A DNA stretch of 64,000 nt from a virus (IMGVR_UViG_3300045988_149737), one strand, 5' to 3'. Positions 3,764 to 15,271 are shown, counted from the stretch's first letter. Numbers and translations are program-made. The notes: generated from the sequence alone by a model not told the origin.

Positions 3764-4906
3764 ATGTCATATTCAACGTTCCGTTTGGGTGCTAATGATG
3801 CAACCAAAGAGCCTATGTTCCTCGGACAATCTGTCAACGTGGCACGTTACGATCAGCAAAAATACCGTGATTTTGAAAAGTTGATTGAACGTCAATTGTC
3901 TTTCTTCTGGCGGCCGGAAGAAGTTGATATTTCGAGCGATCGTATCGACTTCAACACGAAGCTGCGAGACCACGAACGTCACATTTTTCTGAGCAATCTC
4001 CGTTATCAAACGTTACTCGATTCAGTTCAGGGACGTAGCCCAAATGCAACGCTGCTGCCGCTTATCTCTATTCCTGAACTGGAAACGTGGGTTGAAACAT
4101 GGTCTTTCTCTGAGACTATCCATAGCCGCAGCTACACCCACATTATTCGTGGCATGGTGGACGATCCGAGCATTGTTTTTGACGGTATTGTTACGGATGA
4201 AGAAATCATCAACCGAGCGATCAGTATCTCTGCTGAATATGACAGGCTTTATGGGATGACCTGCGAGCGCCAGTCGTTAGGTGAGAAAGAGTTTGAACGT
4301 CTGTACGTAAATGAATATGGCTGGGAGCCATACCCTTTGCATCGTCAGCTTTTCCGCACGTTGGTGTCCATTAATGCGCTTGAGGCGATCCGTTTCTATG
4401 TAAGTTTTGCATGTACGTTTGCCTTTGGCGAACGGAAGTTGCTTGAGGGTAACACCAAAATTATGCGCTTTATTGCCCGTGATGAAGCTCTGCATTGCGA
4501 AGGAACTGAACGCATGATCCGCTTCATGCGTACCGGTCGCGAAGGTTTATTGTGGAAAGAGATTGCTGCTGATGAAGAAAACGTCATTTACGACACCATG
4601 AAATCAGTCGCCGAACAAGAAATGAACTGGGCAGACTATCTCTTCAAAGACGGTTCGATGATTGGTTTAAACGCGGATATTCTGAAGACCTATGTAAAAT
4701 ACCGAACCAATCTGGCTATGAATCGTCTTGGCCTGAAGGCTTTATTTCCAGAAGTTACCACAGATCCGCTGGTCTGGATGAACAAGTGGTTGTTAACCGA
4801 CACACTGCAAATTGCACCACAAGAGGCAGAGCAAAGCACATATCTGGTAGGTCAGATCGATTCTACCGTGGATAAGGCTTCTCTAAGCCAGTTTGCAGAC
4901 CTGTAA
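3764..4906 (+). CDS. nrdB: ribonucleoside-diphosphate reductase beta subunit (class Ia)
   Basis: 380 aa; [13 protein letters not shown] matches the iron-ligand region of class Ia small subunits; RBS aaaaggaaaaa upstream. Confidence 0.95.
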
Positions 4907-4983
4907 ACCGATACAAAGCATTATGTGGCCTGGCAACGCTGGGTCACAATGGATCACAAGAATTAAGAAGGAACAAAACTAGC

Positions 4984-5853
4984 ATGAACTTTACCAAACT
5001 GACTGACCACCTGAAACTTGCCACCGATCGACTCATTGGATTTAAGCCAGAACCATATGAGTTGCATGAAGGCCATGGTGTAGCCACTGAAAGTATTTAC
5101 AAGATGGTCGATCAGTTTCATGAACTCTTCCAGCATCCGAGACGCGTTATGCCGACACCAGAGCTGCTTCGTCTCCGTGCAAGCCTGATTCATGAAGAAG
5201 CTGTAGTGGAAGGGATTCCAGCCGCAATGAATGGGGATATTGAGCAACTGCTGGATGCAATGGCCGACTTTTTATACGTTGGTGTTGGTACGATGGTCTC
5301 CATCAAAGGTGGTATTTCTACCGGCATGACCTATTACACGCAGGAACAGAGCATTGATCGCTTTATGCAGACAATTTTTGTGCCCGGTAACACTGTTTTC
5401 GATGATATGGCAATGCCATTTCAGGAAGCTCGTGAGGCGTCATGTATGCTCGAAGAGCTGGCAGATAAACTTGAGAAGAAGGCTGTTAAGGATTCTGAGC
5501 TGATTCAGGAACTGCGCCGTGTAATGAACAAAATCTATGTGGCGTGCATGATGACTTATCGACTGGCTGATTTCCTCGGTATCAATGTCGTCGAGCTGGT
5601 TGGCGAAATTCATCGGTCTAACATGACAAAATTATGGCCTGCTGATGTTGAGGAACGTCGCCAGGCTGTGGCCAACTGCAAATACGACTCTTCAGATCTG
5701 GGATTCCGCCATGCTGATGGCACCGATAAGATGATCGGTTTTCGAATTTCCGATGGAAAGATTCTGAAGTCTCCAACCTATAGTGATGTCGATTTATCCT
5801 CCTTTGTTGAGCAAGCTAAAGCCTCAGCAATGTACGGAATGATCAAAAAATAA
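4984..5853 (+). CDS. hypothetical protein, possible MazG-like NTP pyrophosphohydrolase N-terminal domain
   Basis: 289 aa; segment LIHEEAVVEGIPAAMNGDIEQLLDAMADFLYV resembles the EExxE...D helical motif of MazG/HisE-type enzymes; sits in the nucleotide-metabolism cluster. Function not established. Confidence 0.5.
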   Translation: MNFTKLTDHLKLATDRLIGFKPEPYELHEGHGVATESIYKMVDQFHELFQHPRRVMPTPELLRLRASLIHEEAVVEGIPAAMNGDIEQLLDAMADFLYVGVGTMVSIKGGISTGMTYYTQEQSIDRFMQTIFVPGNTVFDDMAMPFQEAREASCMLEELADKLEKKAVKDSELIQELRRVMNKIYVACMMTYRLADFLGINVVELVGEIHRSNMTKLWPADVEERRQAVANCKYDSSDLGFRHADGTDKMIGFRISDGKILKSPTYSDVDLSSFVEQAKASAMYGMIKK

Positions 5854-5920
5854 TTGTAGGTAGTTATCTATCTATGTATATTTAACATGCGTAATAAAAC
5901 TCTGGAATGACTATTCGTTT

Positions 5921-5947
5921 TGGTGGCCTATGGCCACCATTTTTTTA
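5921..5947 (+). terminator. rho-independent terminator
   Basis: tggtggcc-tat-ggccacca hairpin followed by ttttttt. Confidence 0.55.
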
Positions 5948-6023
5948 TCTGTCTGGTCTTGTTCTCTCAATGAATGTAAACTCACATGATGAATAAGTAA
6001 TTACTTATCTTTGTGAGGTTTTT

Positions 6024-7127
6024 GTGTCACTACTTTTGAATCGAGAGCATACGAACGGTCAGGTAACAAACGCATCGTATGCAAAAGTTATTGAGACGGT
6101 GCTTAAAAGCGGCGTGCAGGCTGATGATCGCACAGGCACTGGTACTTTAAGCACCTGCTACGTTCCCTCTTATTACATGCTTACTGGTGGGACTGTGCCG
6201 CTTATTTCTGGAAAGGCGGTAAATCTTAAGCCACTGCTTGTCGAACTTGAGTGGTATCTGAAAGGCACGGGCAACATCCAATTTCTCAAGGATAACGGCG
6301 TTAAGATTTGGGATGCATGGGCCGATGAGAATGGCGATTTGGGGCCGGTTTACGGTAAGCAGTGGCGTCGATGGGAAGATACCCGCATCGTGAGCCATAG
6401 TGAATATCTGAGCAAGATCGCTACTTTCCGTGAACGCGGGTACAAAGTCGAGGGATACCTGGGTATCAGTGAAGATCGCGTAGTGCTGTCCCGTGAAATC
6501 GATCAGCTACAGCGTATTGTCGATACACTGCGCACGAACCCTACCGATCGTCGCATCATGCTTAACGCATGGAACGTAGGCGAGCTTGAGGATATGAAAC
6601 TGCCACCTTGCCACTTTGTCTTCTCTTTGTGGAGTCGTGAGCTGGATTTTGAAACCCGTTTAACGATGGCAACTGACATTGGTCTTCAACACAGTCGCCT
6701 CGGTTACGAGTCTATCTACACCAAGATGCTATACGATCTGGAGGTGGACGGCAGTGTTACTGAAGCTGAACTGGATGAACTTGGAATCCCCAAACGCATC
6801 CTCAACTCCTGCCTCGTACAGCGTAGCGTAGACACTTTTGTTGGTATGCCATTCAATATTGCTGGCTATGGCATTCTCACTCATTTTCTCGCGAAGATTA
6901 CGGGTCACATGGCCGGTGCATTTGTGCATTTTGGCTTTGACGTGCATTTGTACAACAACCACATGGAAGGTGTGTGTGAGCTAATGAAACGACAGGCTCC
7001 AGAGCATTCAGATCCGGTCGTTATTTTCCCTCATGAATGGTCAGAGTTGGATGATTTCAAATGGGACGAGGTTTTAATTCTTGGCTATGACCCTCTATCG
7101 TGGATCAAGGTTCCAGTGGCGGTGTGA
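6024..7127 (+). CDS. thyA: thymidylate synthase family protein (ThyA-like, 367 aa with two insertions)
   Basis: DRTGTGTLS, IWDAWADENGDLGPVYGKQWR, catalytic LPPCH and MPFNIAGY (uracil-specifying Asn) are present; GTG start with RBS gagg; about 100 residues longer than canonical ThyA. Confidence 0.85.
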   Translation: MSLLLNREHTNGQVTNASYAKVIETVLKSGVQADDRTGTGTLSTCYVPSYYMLTGGTVPLISGKAVNLKPLLVELEWYLKGTGNIQFLKDNGVKIWDAWADENGDLGPVYGKQWRRWEDTRIVSHSEYLSKIATFRERGYKVEGYLGISEDRVVLSREIDQLQRIVDTLRTNPTDRRIMLNAWNVGELEDMKLPPCHFVFSLWSRELDFETRLTMATDIGLQHSRLGYESIYTKMLYDLEVDGSVTEAELDELGIPKRILNSCLVQRSVDTFVGMPFNIAGYGILTHFLAKITGHMAGAFVHFGFDVHLYNNHMEGVCELMKRQAPEHSDPVVIFPHEWSELDDFKWDEVLILGYDPLSWIKVPVAV

Positions 7128-7128
7128 T

Positions 7129-7542
7129 ATGGCAAGAGGTATGTATGTCTTATGCGAAATTGAAGGTGTGCTGGCAAATGCCAGCCATCGTAAATCAGTA
7201 TCTGACGCGGATGCAGGCCAGCTCATTGCCGGTGATGAACTCATTTTCCCCACTAGCCGTATGTTGCGTGGTTTTGCTCGCTCAGGGGCTGAAGTGGTGC
7301 TTATCAGTAGCCGCTCTGAAACTCTTGAAGCGCCCACTAAACGATGGCTGAAAGATTTTGGCGTTGATTACGACTGGCTTTATCTCGTACCGAATGGCAC
7401 CAGTTATGAGAAGCATATTAAGCGCACATTAGCGGAGCATAAAGGCGATCTGCTTATCGCTGCGCTGGTGCACGATCCTCGACTCCGTGCCGCTTTAGCC
7501 GACTCTCACCATCGACCGGTCATCTATGAGGTGAGCAAATGA
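7129..7542 (+). CDS. hypothetical protein
   Basis: ATG overlaps thyA stop (tgatATGg); ORF track shows a longer version from 7081 overlapping thyA. No confident motif. Confidence 0.45.
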   Translation: MARGMYVLCEIEGVLANASHRKSVSDADAGQLIAGDELIFPTSRMLRGFARSGAEVVLISSRSETLEAPTKRWLKDFGVDYDWLYLVPNGTSYEKHIKRTLAEHKGDLLIAALVHDPRLRAALADSHHRPVIYEVSK

Positions 7543-8015
7543 AGATGATCGCTGCTGTTGGCCGTAACTATGAGATCGGCATAGCGAATGAACTCCCCTG
7601 GCGTTGTTCTACCGATCTGAAGCTATTTAAGAGACTCACCAAAAACGCCACTGTCGTTATGGGGCGTAAAACGATGGAAAGTCTCAAACGCCCTCTTCCA
7701 GAGCGTCATAACCTCGTTTTGACGCGCTCTCATGGCTTTGTACCAAATGGATTCTACCCTGCTGGTGTGGATGATGTGTTGCGATTACCAGAGCCTGTGT
7801 GGGTGATTGGCGGGGAACAAATTTACTCGCTATTCATGCCGCATGTTGAAGAGATTTGGCTCTCCCACATCGGCGTTGATGTACCAAACGCCGATGCATT
7901 CTTCCCGGCAAGCATGATGCGTAACTTAGGCTTTGTGCCTGTTGAAACAGCTTATACCCAACGAGCCAGCGAGGAAGAGCCTGGCTTTTCGCAGATCGTA
8001 TACAGAAGGTCGTAA
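7539..8015 (+). CDS. folA: dihydrofolate reductase
   Basis: 158 aa; collinear with bacterial FolA (IAAVGRNYEIG..LPW, MGRKTMESL..PLPER.NLVLTRS, WVIGGEQIY); start overlaps upstream stop. Confidence 0.9.
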   Translation: MKMIAAVGRNYEIGIANELPWRCSTDLKLFKRLTKNATVVMGRKTMESLKRPLPERHNLVLTRSHGFVPNGFYPAGVDDVLRLPEPVWVIGGEQIYSLFMPHVEEIWLSHIGVDVPNADAFFPASMMRNLGFVPVETAYTQRASEEEPGFSQIVYRRS

Positions 8016-8659
8016 TGGATTACCGGATTGGGATCACTGGTGCTCAGGGCAGTGGGAAAACAACCCTGGCTAAATATATCGACAAACATTACGGAATCCC
8101 TTACGTGGATGCTGGTGTCGGAAGTTTGATGAGCCGCCTCGGTGTTCGAGTAGGTGATTCTATGCCTCTATATGAGCGGCTTCAGATTCAAATGGAAATA
8201 GCAAAGCATATAGAGCTACTTACGCGTGGTGTTGAAGGCTTTGTTATCGATCGCACACCTGCTGATGTTATGGCCTACACGTTGGATTTGGTCGGCCATA
8301 CCAATGAAGATCGGTGTATTGAGTTAGCCCTCGATATCGAAAAGTTTTGCCACAAAACTGCTATTTCAAACTTTAACGCCATTGCTGGCTTACGCCCGGG
8401 AGTCGCTCTCTCAGAGCGAGATTACTTGCGATCACAACGAGCATCATTAGACCGTCTGTATGTCGCTCGTATTGATGCGTTGATGTGCGGGGAACTGACA
8501 AAAATTCACCTGCATCCGCAAAGGGGAGATCTGCAAACCTTCGTCGTTTCCAACCGATATCGCACAGTTGAAGCAAGAGCCAGATCAGTAATGAGAATGC
8601 TCGATAACGCGGTAGAAAAGATAGAAAACCTCTTCTGTGGCCGAGTGACCGTTCATTAG
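8015..8659 (+). CDS. P-loop NTPase, putative (deoxy)nucleotide kinase
   Basis: Walker A GITGAQGSGKTT near N-terminus; size and context (after DHFR/TS/RNR) fit a dNMP-kinase-like enzyme. Exact activity unknown. Confidence 0.55.
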   Translation: MDYRIGITGAQGSGKTTLAKYIDKHYGIPYVDAGVGSLMSRLGVRVGDSMPLYERLQIQMEIAKHIELLTRGVEGFVIDRTPADVMAYTLDLVGHTNEDRCIELALDIEKFCHKTAISNFNAIAGLRPGVALSERDYLRSQRASLDRLYVARIDALMCGELTKIHLHPQRGDLQTFVVSNRYRTVEARARSVMRMLDNAVEKIENLFCGRVTVH

Positions 8660-8720
8660 AAATTGTTCGCCTCTTCGACATTGCGACAATAAAACTCTCA
8701 AAATGGGTTAAGGATAAAAA

Positions 8721-9140
8721 ATGTTTAGTGAAATGTTGCTTGAAGATGAACTGGATCGGAAAACAACAGAGGCTTTGATTCGTGTAGCGGACGAACATTC
8801 CCGGTCGCTTATGAGCGATCGAGAGGCTCGTCTGGCTATTCGTGCCATATTCGAAACTGTGCAGGGGCTTGTTGGCGCACAAGTAGGTGAAGCCATTAAC
8901 ATCGCCATGTCTCAGTTCAGTGAAGACAGTAAAAAGCCTCTGTTTCCTATGCATTTGATGCTGGCTGGTGGCACGGTGCTTTATATCTCTGTTTGTCTGG
9001 ATAGCAACCAAATCAACATTCTCAACACGGCGTCAGGTAAGTGGAAAGATCCGGTTGTCTGTGAAACCAGTGAAGAAACTTTGAAAAAAGCGGCTCAATT
9101 TGTACGTAGCGCACTACTTAAGGGCGCTAAGAAGTTGTAA
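8721..9140 (+). CDS. hypothetical protein
   Basis: 139-aa ORF with RBS aaggataaaaa; no motif recognised. Confidence 0.45.
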   Translation: MFSEMLLEDELDRKTTEALIRVADEHSRSLMSDREARLAIRAIFETVQGLVGAQVGEAINIAMSQFSEDSKKPLFPMHLMLAGGTVLYISVCLDSNQINILNTASGKWKDPVVCETSEETLKKAAQFVRSALLKGAKKL

Positions 9141-9149
9141 GGAGTTCTG

Positions 9150-9707
9150 ATGACAACGATTGTTGCAGGCATCGATATCGAGTCTACGGGACTGGATTTC
9201 CTTGCTGGTCATAAAATTATTGAAATCGCAATTACCCGCTATGAACTGGAGACACAGAGACATATTGATAGTCTGGAGATGCGTTTTAACCCTCGCAGAA
9301 ACATAGATCCGAAAGCTCAAGCCGTTCATGGCATTTCATTGGAACAGCTCGCAGCTGAACCTTTGTTGTCAAATCATGCCAGCGAAATTGGCGCTTATAT
9401 GGGGGCATGTAGTGCGTGGATTGCTCATAACGGCGAAGCGTTTGATATACCATTTATTCGACACGAGTTTTCAGGGTATGGAGTAAGACTGCCAGACGTT
9501 CCTGTTATAGATACTATGTTATCGGGATTGTGGGCCACAGAAGACGGTAAACGTCCACGCCTTGAAGAGTTGGCCTTCTCTCTTGGCTTTATATACGATC
9601 ATGCCAAAGCACATAGTGCCTTATATGACACAAAATTAATGATGCAATGCTTCTTTAAGGCACGTAATAAGTACGGATTTTTTAAATTACCCTCTGAAAT
9701 TGTGTAA
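9150..9707 (+). CDS. DEDDh 3'-5' exonuclease (DnaQ/epsilon-like)
   Basis: Exo I GIDIESTGLD, Exo II HNGEAFDIPF, Exo III HSALYDT; RBS aaggag. Confidence 0.8.
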   Translation: MTTIVAGIDIESTGLDFLAGHKIIEIAITRYELETQRHIDSLEMRFNPRRNIDPKAQAVHGISLEQLAAEPLLSNHASEIGAYMGACSAWIAHNGEAFDIPFIRHEFSGYGVRLPDVPVIDTMLSGLWATEDGKRPRLEELAFSLGFIYDHAKAHSALYDTKLMMQCFFKARNKYGFFKLPSEIV

Positions 9708-9712
9708 AACAA

Positions 9713-9749
9713 AAGCCTACTTTAAAAAGTTTAAAGTAGGCTTTCTTTT
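9713..9749 (+). terminator. terminator (14-bp perfect stem)
   Basis: aagcctactttaaa-aag-tttaaagtaggctt followed by tctttt. Confidence 0.55.
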
Positions 9750-9865
9750 AAAGAACAGTCGCCTTTCAATCATTTCCTGCCTGTATTTAATACTTTTCCG
9801 CCTGATAGGTTTAGTCAAAATGTAGCCATCGAAACGCAAATGTAACCAAACAGAAGGAGACTTAC

Positions 9866-10675
9866 ATGAGTTCGGTTGAAAATGTAATGACAAATGATGA
9901 TCTGGACGAGCTGACAGCCATGTTGCAATCACTTGATGAACCAGTAAAAAAAGCTGCACAGGTTGAAAATACTGATGATATTGACGATCTGCTGCTCGGC
10001 CTAGATGCTGGCGTAGCCATGAGTTCTGATGATGTTGCCGAAGAACTGTTCAATGAAGAAAAAGCAGGTGATTTCAGCTCTGCTTTAAATGAGTTGGAGT
10101 TAGCGCATGAGCCTATAAACGTAATTAACGCTGAAAGTGTTGAAGCTGCCGAAAACGAGCCAGAACAATTGGGATTTATTGAGGTTGAAGAGTGTGTTGA
10201 GGTTAATGATGAATTAAAAGTTCAACAGTCAAATGATAGCAATACAAATAAAAAAGCTCGTACTGCAAGAGGTCCTCGTTTTACTTTAAGTGATAAAGAT
10301 GATTCGTTTTTCAATAAAGCGGGCTTAGAAAAAGATATTTTCTTAGACGCTTACGATAACGCGCCTGTCAAAGCAAAGGATAAGATATTAAACCTTCTTA
10401 ATTGGTTTAGCGGAGGTCCAGATATTAGTGTTTACACGGTAATTTCCATGAGACACCTTCTCACAGAAAAGAAGGCTACAAGTAATAGTATTAAGATTGC
10501 TTTAATGAGCAATCCAGAAAAACCGTATCCGCTTAACACTGCGTCAACTCAGGCTGGGCAAATGATGGCTGTATTTCCAGCGACAAGAATTGCTGTTAGA
10601 GACGGTGGAAATCTAACATTGAACGAAGAATCACCGATCGTTAAGAAGTTTGTCGCGGAGTACACTATTGGATGA
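9866..10675 (+). CDS. hypothetical protein with highly acidic N-terminal half
   Basis: 269 aa; first ~120 residues dominated by D/E; RBS aaggag. Confidence 0.5.
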   Translation: MSSVENVMTNDDLDELTAMLQSLDEPVKKAAQVENTDDIDDLLLGLDAGVAMSSDDVAEELFNEEKAGDFSSALNELELAHEPINVINAESVEAAENEPEQLGFIEVEECVEVNDELKVQQSNDSNTNKKARTARGPRFTLSDKDDSFFNKAGLEKDIFLDAYDNAPVKAKDKILNLLNWFSGGPDISVYTVISMRHLLTEKKATSNSIKIALMSNPEKPYPLNTASTQAGQMMAVFPATRIAVRDGGNLTLNEESPIVKKFVAEYTIG

Positions 10676-10751
10676 CGTTCCCCTACTGAAAATAAAGCCC
10701 ATAGAGAGCTTTATATTGCTGGGTAAGCCAATCACATACCCAGCACCACAA

Positions 10752-10797
10752 AAACGCGCCAGAGAGCTTCTCGTTTGCATTTCTGGCGCGTTTTATT
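10752..10797 (+). terminator. terminator-like hairpin
   Basis: aaacgcgccaga ... tctggcgcgttt 12-bp stem with ~18-nt loop, then tatttg. Confidence 0.45.
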
Positions 10798-10827
10798 TGA
10801 TTGCCAGACATAAAATCAAATGCAAAA

Positions 10828-10847
10828 ATAGGTAATCACTTACCTAT
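10828..10847. promoter_or_regulatory. palindrome ATAGGTAA-tcac-TTACCTAT (family 2 site)
   Basis: Perfect 8-bp arms, 11 nt upstream of the methyltransferase start; same family recurs at least 10 times in the window. Confidence 0.45.
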
Positions 10848-10858
10848 CGAGAAAGAAG

Positions 10859-11452
10859 ATGATTGCAGCCGAAAAAATCAAACAGCGAAAGCGCGACAAC
10901 TCTCTTCGTGACCTCTGGAGAACACCTGACTGGCTGTTTTCTGCCATTCAACGTTATCTTGGGGTGACATTTGATGTTGACGTTGCCTGCAACAAGGACA
11001 ATGCAAAGCTGCCTAATTTCATAGGCGTTGAGCGTGATGCTTTGAAATCTGAATGGGGACAGCCAGGTACAATTGCCTTCCTCAATCCCCCCTACTCCAA
11101 AATCTCCCCCTGGATTGATGCGGCTATACGTGAGCAGGCTCGCGGAGTTACAACAGTGATGCTAATTCCTCAATCCCTAGATACAAAGTGGTATGAGCGT
11201 GCAACAGAGTGTGCGAATGAGACGATTATTCTGTCTGGTGGCCGCGTAGCGTTTGTCGAGCCTGACGTCAATCTGGGTCAGGTAGAAGTAAACATCAACC
11301 CAGGTGGCAGTATGCTCGTTGTTTTTCGAGGATTCTGTCAGGACGCTGGGCACTCTATAAGCAAGATCCCTTTGGACGTCATGAAAAGTCTGGGAGGGTA
11401 TGATCCTGCGAATGTGATCAGGAAAAAAAGACCATCAAAGAAGGCTGCTTAG
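10859..11452 (+). CDS. DNA N6-adenine methyltransferase (phage Dam-type)
   Basis: TPDWLF near N-terminus and FLNPPYSK catalytic motif. Confidence 0.85.
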   Translation: MIAAEKIKQRKRDNSLRDLWRTPDWLFSAIQRYLGVTFDVDVACNKDNAKLPNFIGVERDALKSEWGQPGTIAFLNPPYSKISPWIDAAIREQARGVTTVMLIPQSLDTKWYERATECANETIILSGGRVAFVEPDVNLGQVEVNINPGGSMLVVFRGFCQDAGHSISKIPLDVMKSLGGYDPANVIRKKRPSKKAA

Positions 11453-11473
11453 TTTGTTCTGGCGTCTGTAATT

Positions 11474-11532
11474 AGCCTGCTTCTGTATATATAAATAACT
11501 ACATATTAATTATTAATATACGGAAGCAGGCT
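11474..11532. repeat. long inverted-repeat hairpin element, copy A
   Basis: agcctgcttctgtatata ... tatacggaagcaggct arms around an AT-rich loop; a second near-identical copy at 41167-41225. Confidence 0.6.
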
Positions 11533-11637
11533 GTTTTGTATCAGAGACTCCAGACCTGAACATCACTACAGAATCCACTAGAACCCCTTCCCAGACGCTT
11601 TAAAATCGATTTTATGAATCACTTTAAGGAAACTAAC

Positions 11638-11868
11638 ATGTCATACCCGACTAATGTCGTTGCGCTCGTAGAGAGCGATTTTCTGGCCCAGGCCCGTGAA
11701 ATGATGAAAGATCGCGAGCAGGCTTTCAACTTGTACGAATGGGCAATTAAGTGCTTGCATCTTGGGGAGCATCGCGAACTTGTTGAACAGCTTTTAGGTG
11801 AGTTGATTAACGAGGTGTTTGCCTTGAATGTTCAACTACATGGTCGAGAAAATAATCAATCGAAATGA
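11638..11868 (+). CDS. hypothetical small protein
   Basis: 76 aa from ATG at 11638 (RBS taaggaaa); ORF track begins 8 codons earlier without an RBS. Confidence 0.4.
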   Translation: MSYPTNVVALVESDFLAQAREMMKDREQAFNLYEWAIKCLHLGEHRELVEQLLGELINEVFALNVQLHGRENNQSK

Positions 11869-12388
11869 TAGATAAGTACAAACTATTCATAAAGTGAATT
11901 GTAAGTGCTAAGATCTGATAGTTTCCAGTCGTAGACTGGAGACTCGACCTGATGGGTGGGGGATAGCGTCACTGGCGTCAGGTTTAAAAAAGCTCACTAC
12001 CAGCGTAGAACCGGCACCGTTTAGGGGTTGGGGAAGGGGGAACCAAAGTGGGCAGAGAGAAGGGTCACTTTATGATTGTCGAGTCTGGAGTGTTTAGAGA
12101 GGTTGAATCCAGTGCTCCCCTTCATAAAGTGTGGGAAGATCTCGGTTCTGGGGTGCTGTCATCCATAACTTCCCAAGTCTAAGCTGGCAGTAGACTTAGG
12201 CCATAACTTTTCAGGTTATGAAACGACCAGGTTGGTGAGGGATTTTTATACTCACCTCCCTGGGAGAGTATTACCTGAAAAGACAACCTCTCACTTCGTT
12301 CGAGGTGAACTTCACTCACTTCGTTCGTTCAGTTCAGGTTTATAAAAACCTGTTCTGGGAAGTAATTTGTTTATTTTAATAATTATTA

Positions 12389-12413
12389 ACACGCACGCGT
12401 GTGCGCACGCGCG
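12389..12413. repeat. 25-nt perfect alternating purine/pyrimidine tract
   Basis: acacgcacgcgtgtgcgcacgcgcg alternates R/Y without interruption; contains palindromes cacgcgtg and gtgcgcac. Confidence 0.7.
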
Positions 12414-12453
12414 AGGAAAAAAAATCGGCGCGGCGCTTGATTCAGGAGTTTAT

Positions 12454-13047
12454 ATGACGACGAAGACACCAGCCCGATCGCAAGCAAAAACTCGCAAAAA
12501 AGCCAAAAACAAAAATTCTCCCCGCACCAATTACACAACGCCTGTCGTAGAGTTCAATCCCCAGCTTAAAACCGTGAAAATCTTCAGTGATGGATCTTGC
12601 CTTAAAAATCCGGGTGGCCCGGGCGGTTACGGTATCGTTCTTCAGTATCGTGGAGAGGAACGCGAGTTCTCAGATGGTTTTCATAGCACCACCAATAACC
12701 GCATGGAGATGATGGGGGCACTTATCGGGCTGGAGCGTTTGAAATATCCATGCAACGTTATTTTACACTCTGATAGCCAGTATCTGAAAAACGGCATGAC
12801 ACTGTGGATGAAATGGTGGAAACGCAATGGATGGATGACTTCTGACAAAAAACCGGTAAAGAATGTTGATCTGTGGAAGCGTCTGGATGAGGCTGCAAGT
12901 CGACATAATGTTCGCTGGAAGTGGGTTAAAGGTCACGCCGGGCATCGTGAAAATGAAATATGTGATCGACTCGCGAAGATCGCAGCTTTTTCCGCAGCAG
13001 ATATGCCTCACAAGAAAGATATTGGTTTTGTTTACAACAAACGGTAG
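12454..13047 (+). CDS. rnhA: ribonuclease HI with basic N-terminal extension
   Basis: [51 protein letters not shown] collinear with E. coli RnhA; ATG at 12454 with RBS caggag (ORF track start 12367 lacks RBS). Confidence 0.9.
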
Positions 13048-13978: not shown

Positions 13979-14404
13979 ATGTTAGGTTTATTCAAAAAGA
14001 AAACTCGTAAAGCTGTTATCGAGGTCAAAAAAATGGAGAACCGAGATGCGGTTGAAGCCACCGTGTGGGGCGCGTACATGATCTCCTATGCCGATGGCAC
14101 ATGCGACGCAAAGGAAATTTCCATTCTTGAGAAAACAATTGCAGCTCTGCCTGCGTTTTCTCCGTTTGCTGGTGAGATTGCCCAAATGAGCGCCAATATC
14201 CGTGCTCAATACGAAGCCTCACCGCGCCGCGCTAATGCCCAGGCTTTACGTGAGCTGGCTGATGTGGCCGGGACTAATGATGCAGTAGATGTACTGTGTC
14301 TGTGCCTTGATATTGCCGACCAAGACGGTATTGGCGAACAAGAAGAGCTGGCCCTGAAAAAGATCGCACAGGCGCTTCAGTTGTCACTGGATGCTTATCT
14401 CTAA
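13979..14404 (+). CDS. TerB-like domain protein
   Basis: 141 aa; paired Asp-rich helices (ADGTCDAKEISILEK and DIADQDGIGEQEELALKKIA) resemble the TerB fold. Confidence 0.55.
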   Translation: MLGLFKKKTRKAVIEVKKMENRDAVEATVWGAYMISYADGTCDAKEISILEKTIAALPAFSPFAGEIAQMSANIRAQYEASPRRANAQALRELADVAGTNDAVDVLCLCLDIADQDGIGEQEELALKKIAQALQLSLDAYL

Positions 14405-14562
14405 TGCTTGAGAGATTCCGGCTTGTGACCGTCATTGCTCTTCTGGTGATGGCGGTGTTGGTGGATTTTACGGGAAAGATGATGTCTGTCATTTCTGATG
14501 GCGTCCTCATTGGTCTGGCGATCTACTTCGCTTATCCGCTAGTCCGTAAAGCAACGTGTTAA
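14404..14562 (+). CDS. small hydrophobic protein (52 aa, two predicted TM segments)
   Basis: ATG overlaps TerB-like stop (taATG); translated by hand as MLERFRLVTVIALLVMAVLVDF...LIGLAIYFAYPLVRKATC; below the ORF-track length cut-off. Confidence 0.4.
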   Translation: MLERFRLVTVIALLVMAVLVDFTGKMMSVISDGVLIGLAIYFAYPLVRKATC

Positions 14563-14565
14563 TGA

Positions 14566-14592
14566 CAAGGGCCAAATGGCCCTTGTGTTTCG
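14566..14592 (+). terminator. rho-independent terminator
   Basis: caagggcc-aaat-ggcccttg followed by tgtttcgtt. Confidence 0.5.
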
Positions 14593-14701
14593 TTGACCGA
14601 AATAGAGAGTTTGCACCTTTACGTTTAGCTTGCTCCCCTTTTATGCCACATCACAATAAAGCCAATAAGAAAACAACTTGTTTAAGCATTAGGAAAAACA
14701 C

Positions 14702-15271
14702 ATGTGCAAGAAATGCAAAGCGATAGCTGATGAACAAAACGCCTTATTCGAAGAAATGGATGCTAATGAACTGGTCAAAATGTTAGCCATTCTTCGAGGA
14801 ATAGAAGACGTTTCCATATTTGAGAGAGTGGTTACAGCACTTAATTTTGAGTCCACCTTTGAAGAGCCAACTCAGGTTGTAGCTTTAGCACATCATTTCG
14901 GTGTTCATTATCTTGCTGAAAAAGAGCGCGCTGATAAGTTGCAGGCGACTTTGGATATGGTGAGCGAGACTCAACGAACTGATGACACTAACAAGAGTGA
15001 GGCGATTATTGCCAGCAAAGATCGTGAAATTGCTGGGCTTAAATCCTCTCTAACGATGTTGATGTCTGCGTTCAATCTTATGTCTTCTCAGGCGGGTTAT
15101 AAAATGCCATCACTAAACAGCGATGATCCGATGGCCGTTCGTCAGCTTTTGGGAGCAATGGCCGACCAACTCGACGACACAAAGAGTCGGCTTGAAGACA
15201 TGATGCGTGAGTTAAGCCATCGACATAACCTCGCAACACAGCCACACAAAGCCTTTCAAAGCTCTAATTGA
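14702..15271 (+). CDS. hypothetical protein
   Basis: 189 aa; preceded by family-1 operator and RBS aggaaaaa. Confidence 0.5.
   Translation: MCKKCKAIADEQNALFEEMDANELVKMLAILRGIEDVSIFERVVTALNFESTFEEPTQVVALAHHFGVHYLAEKERADKLQATLDMVSETQRTDDTNKSEAIIASKDREIAGLKSSLTMLMSAFNLMSSQAGYKMPSLNSDDPMAVRQLLGAMADQLDDTKSRLEDMMRELSHRHNLATQPHKAFQSSN

Follow-up and report, generated by a model that had tools for sequence, protein, structure and literature searches.

The question raised by this locus is whether an unusually long thymidylate synthase (TS) homologue is still a classical ThyA, or whether its additional residues accompany a change in chemistry. The stretch of viral DNA analyzed, referred to here as the window, is 64,000 nucleotides long (IMGVR_UViG_3300045988_149737) and carries at positions 6024..7127 (+ strand, as are all features described below) a gene for a ThyA-type protein of 367 aa, with a GTG start and its stop codon at 7125-7127, which makes it 103 residues longer than E. 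coli ThyA. An earlier note on this DNA had described an intact ThyA core with an N-terminal extension and two in-frame insertions without intein termini; it had also proposed that these could alter oligomerisation and had raised the possibility of a dUMP-modifying enzyme such as a hydroxymethylase.

The thyA gene and its neighbourhood

The boundaries of thyA are identical to those annotated in Escherichia phage Cyrano (OV696614.1 72630-73733), and direct reading of the sequence places a Shine-Dalgarno-like GAGG (6015..6018) 5 nt 5' of the GTG. Positions 5000-9000 of the window share 98.8% identity with phage Cyrano, compared with about 76% for Salmonella phage SSU5; judged by this nucleotide similarity, the window is an SSU5-like phage-plasmid. 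The Cyrano record names its copy of the gene "ThyX Thymidylate synthase", which is a misannotation, ThyX being an unrelated, flavin-dependent family.

The gene is part of a cassette (positions 3764-8659) encoding, in this order, NrdA, NrdB, a MazG-like protein, ThyA, a HAD-family protein, dihydrofolate reductase (DHFR) and a P-loop kinase. Upstream of thyA lies the gene for the MazG-like nucleotide pyrophosphohydrolase (4984..5853, 289 aa; PF01503 E=1.3e-8, phrog_671), in which the PRA-PH match covers residues 42-105 only and about 180 C-terminal residues are without a Pfam match. Between both genes there is a terminator-like hairpin followed by a T-run (5921..5949), recognized by consensus match only: the hairpin itself (5921-5939) has an 8-bp stem with 6 GC pairs and is followed by TTTTTTTATC. 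Downstream, a HAD-family PNKP-phosphatase-like protein is encoded at 7129..7542, its ATG being 2 nt past the thyA stop; the mechanically called ORF begins at a TTG (7081) inside thyA, while the start annotated in Cyrano is the ATG at 7129. The DHFR gene (7539..8015; PF00186 E=1.6e-34) has a start that overlaps the stop of the HAD gene, and this overlap at 7539 suggests translational coupling. The last member, at 8015..8659, encodes a P-loop kinase whose similarity to thymidylate kinase is weak (PF13521; phrog_2107 E=5.4e-10).

The same order of genes was found in a Photobacterium ganghwense locus (5569-12629 of the fetched region), while a 127-kb metagenomic contig (1319-7065) carries NrdAB, a PRA-PH protein and ThyA without a DHFR or kinase match.

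Architecture of the window protein

The alignment with E. coli ThyA (Ec in residue numbering) falls into three blocks, in which residues 18-118, 156-203 and 261-367 of the window protein correspond to Ec 3-102, 106-153 and 160-264. Using hmmalign against a 264-column core we obtained 17 N-terminal residues and net gains of 34 residues at Ec 104-106 and of 51 at Ec 153-158. The ORF, the Pfam match and the alignments thus bear out the earlier description of a ThyA homologue with an intact core, two in-frame insertions and an N-terminal extension. The length it gave for the first insert, about 35 residues following GKQWRRW, agrees with the net +34 of residues 119-155. The second had been put at about 45 residues immediately after PCH, and here the description needs correction: 57 residues (204-260) replace 6, and the insert begins 7 residues past PCH, once the whole beta-strand PCHFVFSLW has been completed.

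The absence of intein termini was likewise borne out, as the inserts, of 37 and 57 aa, do not end in His-Asn and belong to the fold itself in the model. Mini-inteins are far larger than this. An intein-interrupted ThyA, for which we looked for a segment of at least about 130 aa with a Cys/Ser/Thr start and a His-Asn plus Cys/Ser/Thr end, was rejected for both inserts; an intron and a frameshift artefact were also weighed as sources of the inserts and rejected.

The N-terminal extension (residues 1-17, 6024..6074) has, according to the alignment and the model, a disordered tip and then lengthens helix A; residues 1-10 are poorly ordered in the model (pLDDT 59). Depending on the alignment it measures 15-17 aa. 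The extension is real: SSU5-like relatives keep one, also with non-ATG starts; its length and sequence vary among relatives, and its pN is 0.22-0.36 against a pS of 0.62-0.85.

Conservation of the catalytic core

The window protein matched Pfam PF00303 (Thymidylat_synt) with E=6.6e-78 and 262 bits, the cut-off being 24.3; it scored 217.2 bits against the NCBIfam ThyA equivalog TIGR03284 (cut-off 108.35) and matched PHROG 160 in one stretch, residues 2-367. Its identity to ThyAs of 264 aa is 44-48%, with 44% in a full-length alignment to E. coli ThyA. A single-chain AlphaFold2 model, built from a 48-sequence alignment of long forms, had a mean pLDDT of 93.8 and a pTM of 0.92. Compared with the PDB by Foldseek, this model displayed the TS fold, with a target TM-score of 0.94 and a query TM-score of 0.68 for E. 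coli TS. The latter enzyme (264 aa; PDB 1AN5, 2TSC) has the same fold, C-terminal tail and residues for catalysis and ligand binding as the window protein. It covers only 68% of the query model and has neither the 17 additional N-terminal residues nor the two inserts (+34 aa for insert 1, +51 aa for insert 2).

At 23 of 26 key positions the residue is the same as in E. coli ThyA, the exceptions being H51N, L172V and I264V. Residue alignment places the catalytic nucleophile at Cys196 (codon 6609..6611; C146 in E. coli) and the counterpart of N177 at Asn278 (codon 6855..6857); N177 sets the specificity for dUMP rather than dCMP (PMC8670742). The dUMP-binding set is complete, comprising C196 within PCH together with R36, R176, R177, R267, S268, H308, Y310 and N278 (R21, R126', R127', R166, S167, H207, Y209 and N177 in E. 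coli numbering). In TS, the arginines R21, R126', R127' and R166 bind phosphate. Also kept are the residues for folate binding and hydride transfer E74, I95, W96, W99, Y110, L193, D270 and F277 (Ec E58, I79, W80, W83, Y94, L143, D169 and F176), as well as those identical to Ec H147 and Q165, and the protein ends in PVAV, the C-terminal tail whose carboxylate closes the active site in TS.

Taken at the level of sequence, the gene is a bona fide ThyA, and its chemistry is almost certainly unchanged: its product would convert dUMP and 5,10-methylene-THF into dTMP and DHF by an unchanged catalytic core. A dCMP hydroxymethylase or dCMP methylase was also considered and was discarded, as these need Asp at Ec 177, where the window protein has Asn.

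Insert 1

Insert 1 (residues 119-155, 6378..6488; 37 aa, net +34) is located in the "interface loop" (Ec 100-110). It is modelled as a small beta-meander with strands 117-124, 141-146 and 152-159 and two short helices, and is characterized by the motif DTRxV...RG(Y/F)...VVxxR. Neither insert alone retrieved anything from Pfam at E<=1, nor did the bare insert sequences retrieve anything from the PDB by phmmer at E<=10. Once short flanks were included, a profile of insert 1 matched residues 109-173 of PDB entry 3V8H in one continuous stretch (E=1.2e-10), whereas E. coli-type TS was split around the insert in the alignments shown and the other listed PDB matches comprised only one or both flanks. 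By this profile match, insert 1 has a homologous segment in the TS of Burkholderia thailandensis.

That enzyme (BTH_I1680, 323 aa, of the NF010393/PRK13821 type) has, like the window protein, an interface loop elaborated by 35-45 aa, and 288 residues of the two could be aligned; they are only 28% identical, and W83, kept in the window protein, is replaced in 3V8H. With 137.7 bits against an NF010393 cut-off of 576, the window protein is not a member of that family and shares insert 1 only. Five further sequences considered as NF010393 members (P0191, P0200, P0206, P0253 and P0266) turned out not to belong to it either. The B. thailandensis TS is listed among putative essential Burkholderia proteins (PMC3561365); the presence of insert 1 in a putatively essential cellular TS thus indicates that it is compatible with ordinary TS function.

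Insert 2

Insert 2 (residues 204-260, 6633..6803) replaces a hairpin turn, VADGK in E. coli ThyA. The model shows three helices (209-225, 231-242 and 247-253) on a lengthened beta-hairpin (197-206/258-266), and the insert carries the motif E(L/M)xxxER...LDxxx(I/V)PxR. Two of its residues, R212 and P256, are invariant in the 48 long forms compared. When a profile of insert 2 with short flanks was compared with the PDB, the matches listed (best 60 of 120) were to the flanks only and the alignments shown were split; 3V8H was not among these best 60 of 120. Thus, among the PDB matches listed, insert 2 appears to be without a counterpart in solved TS structures.

Classical enzymes with lineage-specific insertions are found elsewhere, as in the TSs of L. 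casei (316 aa) and human (313 aa). The human interface-loop insert, of about 8 aa, lies in the same loop as insert 1; the 50-aa insert of L. casei TS is in the small domain near Ec 88-89, a site other than those of the window inserts. Neither enzyme has anything at the tip of the hairpin where insert 2 stands.

Distribution of the two-insert form

A match to thyA was found in 203 of 5,426 complete E. coli genomes; 206 of the 208 matching places were on plasmids, the eight listed plasmids measuring 107-113 kb, and the matches listed carry the annotation "thymidylate synthase". In PLSDB, 818 plasmids had a match, of which 726 were at least 60% identical; Klebsiella, Escherichia, Enterobacter and Salmonella were the main sources. 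SSU5-like elements of Morganella, Providencia and Xenorhabdus encode relatives of 350-378 aa that are 50-88% identical.

Both inserts also occur at the same sites in proteins only 36-41% identical, from phage-like contigs and cultured jumbo phages. The latter include SPN3US gp037, 201phi2-1 B3FJL1, and the TSs of Erwinia phages Machina and Huxley and of Cronobacter phage CR5, whose tblastn matches ran in one piece through 95-98% of the query. In BFVD, the model for the 201phi2-1 protein spans the inserts (query TM-score 0.83). These proteins differ from the window protein in being only 37-41% identical to it, in the gene neighbourhoods in which they are found and, for SPN3US, in a divergent insert 1; forms of about 420-457 aa (201phi2-1 B3FJL1; P0161, 455 aa) have in addition a third large insert, located in the small domain. 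One phage-like contig, which carries P0129, has a two-insert ThyA beside a Thg1-like gene, an NAD-dependent DNA ligase, DHFR, a homologue of the anti-CBASS protein Acb1, and ClpP.

A profile search of 1.84 billion representatives returned 7,184 ThyA matches at E<=1e-30, and among the best 150 of these most were 300-590 aa long. We sampled 229 near-complete sequences, with a bias towards long forms: both inserts were present in 109, neither in 73, insert 2 only in 28 and insert 1 only in 19, and a further 36 also had a third insert in the small domain. Since either insert can occur alone, the two do not strictly depend on each other. The DTR motif within insert 1, whose dependence on insert 2 would be a proxy for contact between the two, was present in 56 of the 109 forms having both and in 3 of the 19 having insert 1 only.

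Larger insertions were seen too, with 119-135 aa at the interface loop (P0163, P0179, P0195, P0197, P0245) or 75-95 aa in the small domain (P0125, P0130, P0141, P0174, P0177), and many ThyA forms of 430-590 aa were not alignable by hmmalign; these larger insertions and long forms could be inteins, homing-endonuclease insertions or fusions.

Conservation and evolution of the inserts

HMMs built from the inserts of the SSU5 group gave distant long forms median scores of 27 and 21 bits, while the medians for short forms were 5.5 and 2.0. Within both inserts pN was 0.04-0.24 and pS 0.59-0.99; pN and pS were used since saturated synonymous sites mostly prevented the calculation of dN/dS. On the evidence of these profile scores and substitution values, the inserts are shown to be homologous across phage lineages and under purifying selection, hence ancient and constrained. 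Both are less conserved and faster evolving than the core, as is expected for surface elaborations. Their predicted structure is well defined, with 10-residue block means of pLDDT between 89 and 98 for residues 11-360, both inserts included.

In a neighbour-joining tree computed from core columns, the distribution of insert 2 needed 31 Fitch changes, compared with about 71 after shuffling. Insert 2 is thus clustered, though not as a single clade in this crude tree, which does not resolve the monophyly of the long forms.

The earlier note would have seen its reading refuted if such insertions were common in ordinary phage ThyA proteins with demonstrated activity. The first part largely holds, as the inserts are common in phage ThyAs and insert 1 is present in the B. 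thailandensis TS; the second finds no support, since the literature searched contained no enzymology, complementation or structure for any two-insert ThyA, no description of the inserts and no report of TS activity from a jumbo phage or an SSU5 element.

Location at the dimer interface

Residues 100-110 of the E. coli enzyme constitute the interface loop, where human TS also has an insertion (PMC4661567), and human Y202 is found on the edge of the contact between the two monomers (PMC9831607). Our alignment equates this tyrosine with Ec Y153 and with W203 of the window protein, the residue just before insert 2. With one site in the interface loop and the other directly after the residue equivalent to Y202, both are placed on the edge of the interface between the two TS subunits, which makes the proposal that they alter oligomerisation a plausible one.

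The inserts would then be two folded surface modules grafted onto loops bordering the obligate dimer interface. Insert 1 would expand the interface loop, while insert 2, with its three helices, would cap the hairpin tip beyond the catalytic strand; together they would enlarge or cap the rim of the interface and perhaps dock partner enzymes, leaving the chemistry unaltered. Most plausibly, the role of the inserts is to stabilise or cap the dimer interface or to dock a partner. Overall, we consider it likely that the gene encodes a working classical TS within a phage-plasmid nucleotide-supply cassette, with two folded modules at the interface rim whose role is most likely structural.

Alternative explanations

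With its MazG-like NTPase, TS homologue, phosphatase and kinase, the cassette bears a superficial resemblance to the toolkit by which SPO1 replaces thymidine with 5-hmdU (PMC8989533). By analogy, the hydroxymethylase brought up by the earlier note would be a dUMP-modifying enzyme feeding thymidine replacement, and the MazG-like, HAD and kinase proteins would be the dTTPase, the dTMPase and the HMdUMP kinase. The SPO1 enzyme gp29 (383 aa), used here as a control, is like the window protein a member of the TS superfamily longer than E. coli ThyA, and both have the catalytic Cys, R166, D169, N177, H207 and Y209 (E. coli numbering). However, they are only 19% identical (BLASTP E=0.023), and gp29 remains at 58.2 bits, below the TIGR03284 cut-off of 108.35 that the window protein exceeds with 217.2. 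It departs from TS at W80, W83, R127, L143, H147, Q165 and F176, all kept in the window protein, having instead M88, F91, Q140, D159, N163, N181 and A193 (gp29 residues); moreover, none of its residues aligned with the C-terminal tail of TS, present as PVAV in the window protein. It is also without inserts at the two sites, its extra length being C-terminal. In SPO1 gene 29 (14101-15252 of the locus fetched) these additional ~150 residues form an extension without a ThyA counterpart. Extra length in a ThyA, taken by itself, is no sign of base modification. The neighbourhood points in the same direction: DHFR is required only when DHF is formed, as happens with a synthase and not with a hydroxymethylase, so that a DHFR gene two genes away, within the operon-like block of thyA, makes the latter role unlikely. 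In the Cyrano record, which is 98.8% identical, no 5-HMUDK, aGPT-Pplase or dCMP deaminase was annotated in the 12 kb flanking the gene on each side, and about 4% of complete E. coli genomes harbour the element in plasmid form, which also speaks against a hydroxymethylase. With the TS-specific residues and the tail retained, we give a hydroxymethylase feeding thymidine replacement hardly any chance.

If the enzyme is a synthase, the inserts might serve phage-specific docking of DHFR or other enzymes of a dNTP complex, or might enforce phage-phage homodimers instead of mixing with host ThyA. Each active site of TS takes R126' and R127' from the partner subunit, thus a mixed dimer would matter, and with E. 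coli ThyA 44% identical such mixing is conceivable; both inserts are at the dimer-interface rim, and every context of a two-insert ThyA that we examined was a phage or a phage-plasmid. Finer-Moore et al. reportedly proposed in 1994 that surface inserts specific to T4 TS let the enzyme dock to the dNTP synthetase complex of that phage. On the other hand, the gene has different neighbours in SSU5-like elements and in jumbo phages, with no DHFR Pfam match beside the SPN3US gene, insert 1 is also present in a cellular housekeeping TS, and a single conserved partner fits poorly with the large differences in sequence and length at the centres of the inserts; we regard this explanation as improbable, although with a small chance of being right. 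The inserts might also be neutral, tolerated loop expansions without a selected function: both sites are known hot spots of TS length variation (human TS has its insertion in the interface loop), the extra residues in our sample range from 0 to 135 at site 1 and from 0 to 90 at site 2, and the inserts are less conserved than the core. Neutrality is nevertheless difficult to reconcile with recognizable motifs retained between lineages only 36-41% identical, with the invariance of R212 and P256, with a pN well below pS and with a confidently predicted fold, making it very unlikely.

Implications

The likely reading, that of a classical TS carrying two probably structural modules at its interface rim, makes the window ThyA a modest structural variant and not a new function. 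The two-insert architecture is common among phage-type ThyAs and appears to be undescribed in the literature searched. It defines a recognizable "long" phage-type form by the motifs of insert 1 and insert 2, in proteins that databases label simply as thymidylate synthase. Insert 2, with no solved counterpart among the PDB matches listed and situated beside a region homologous to the druggable Y202 pocket of human TS, is a target for structural work. If docking or self-recognition were true, the retention of the inserts in phage-plasmids and jumbo phages would reflect conflict with, or insulation from, host nucleotide metabolism. The practical value of the finding is modest; still, thyA is carried, along with a DHFR gene, on phage-plasmids of about 110 kb that are common in clinical Enterobacterales, and thus the activity of its product could bear on the thymidine metabolism of the host and on its responses to antifolates.
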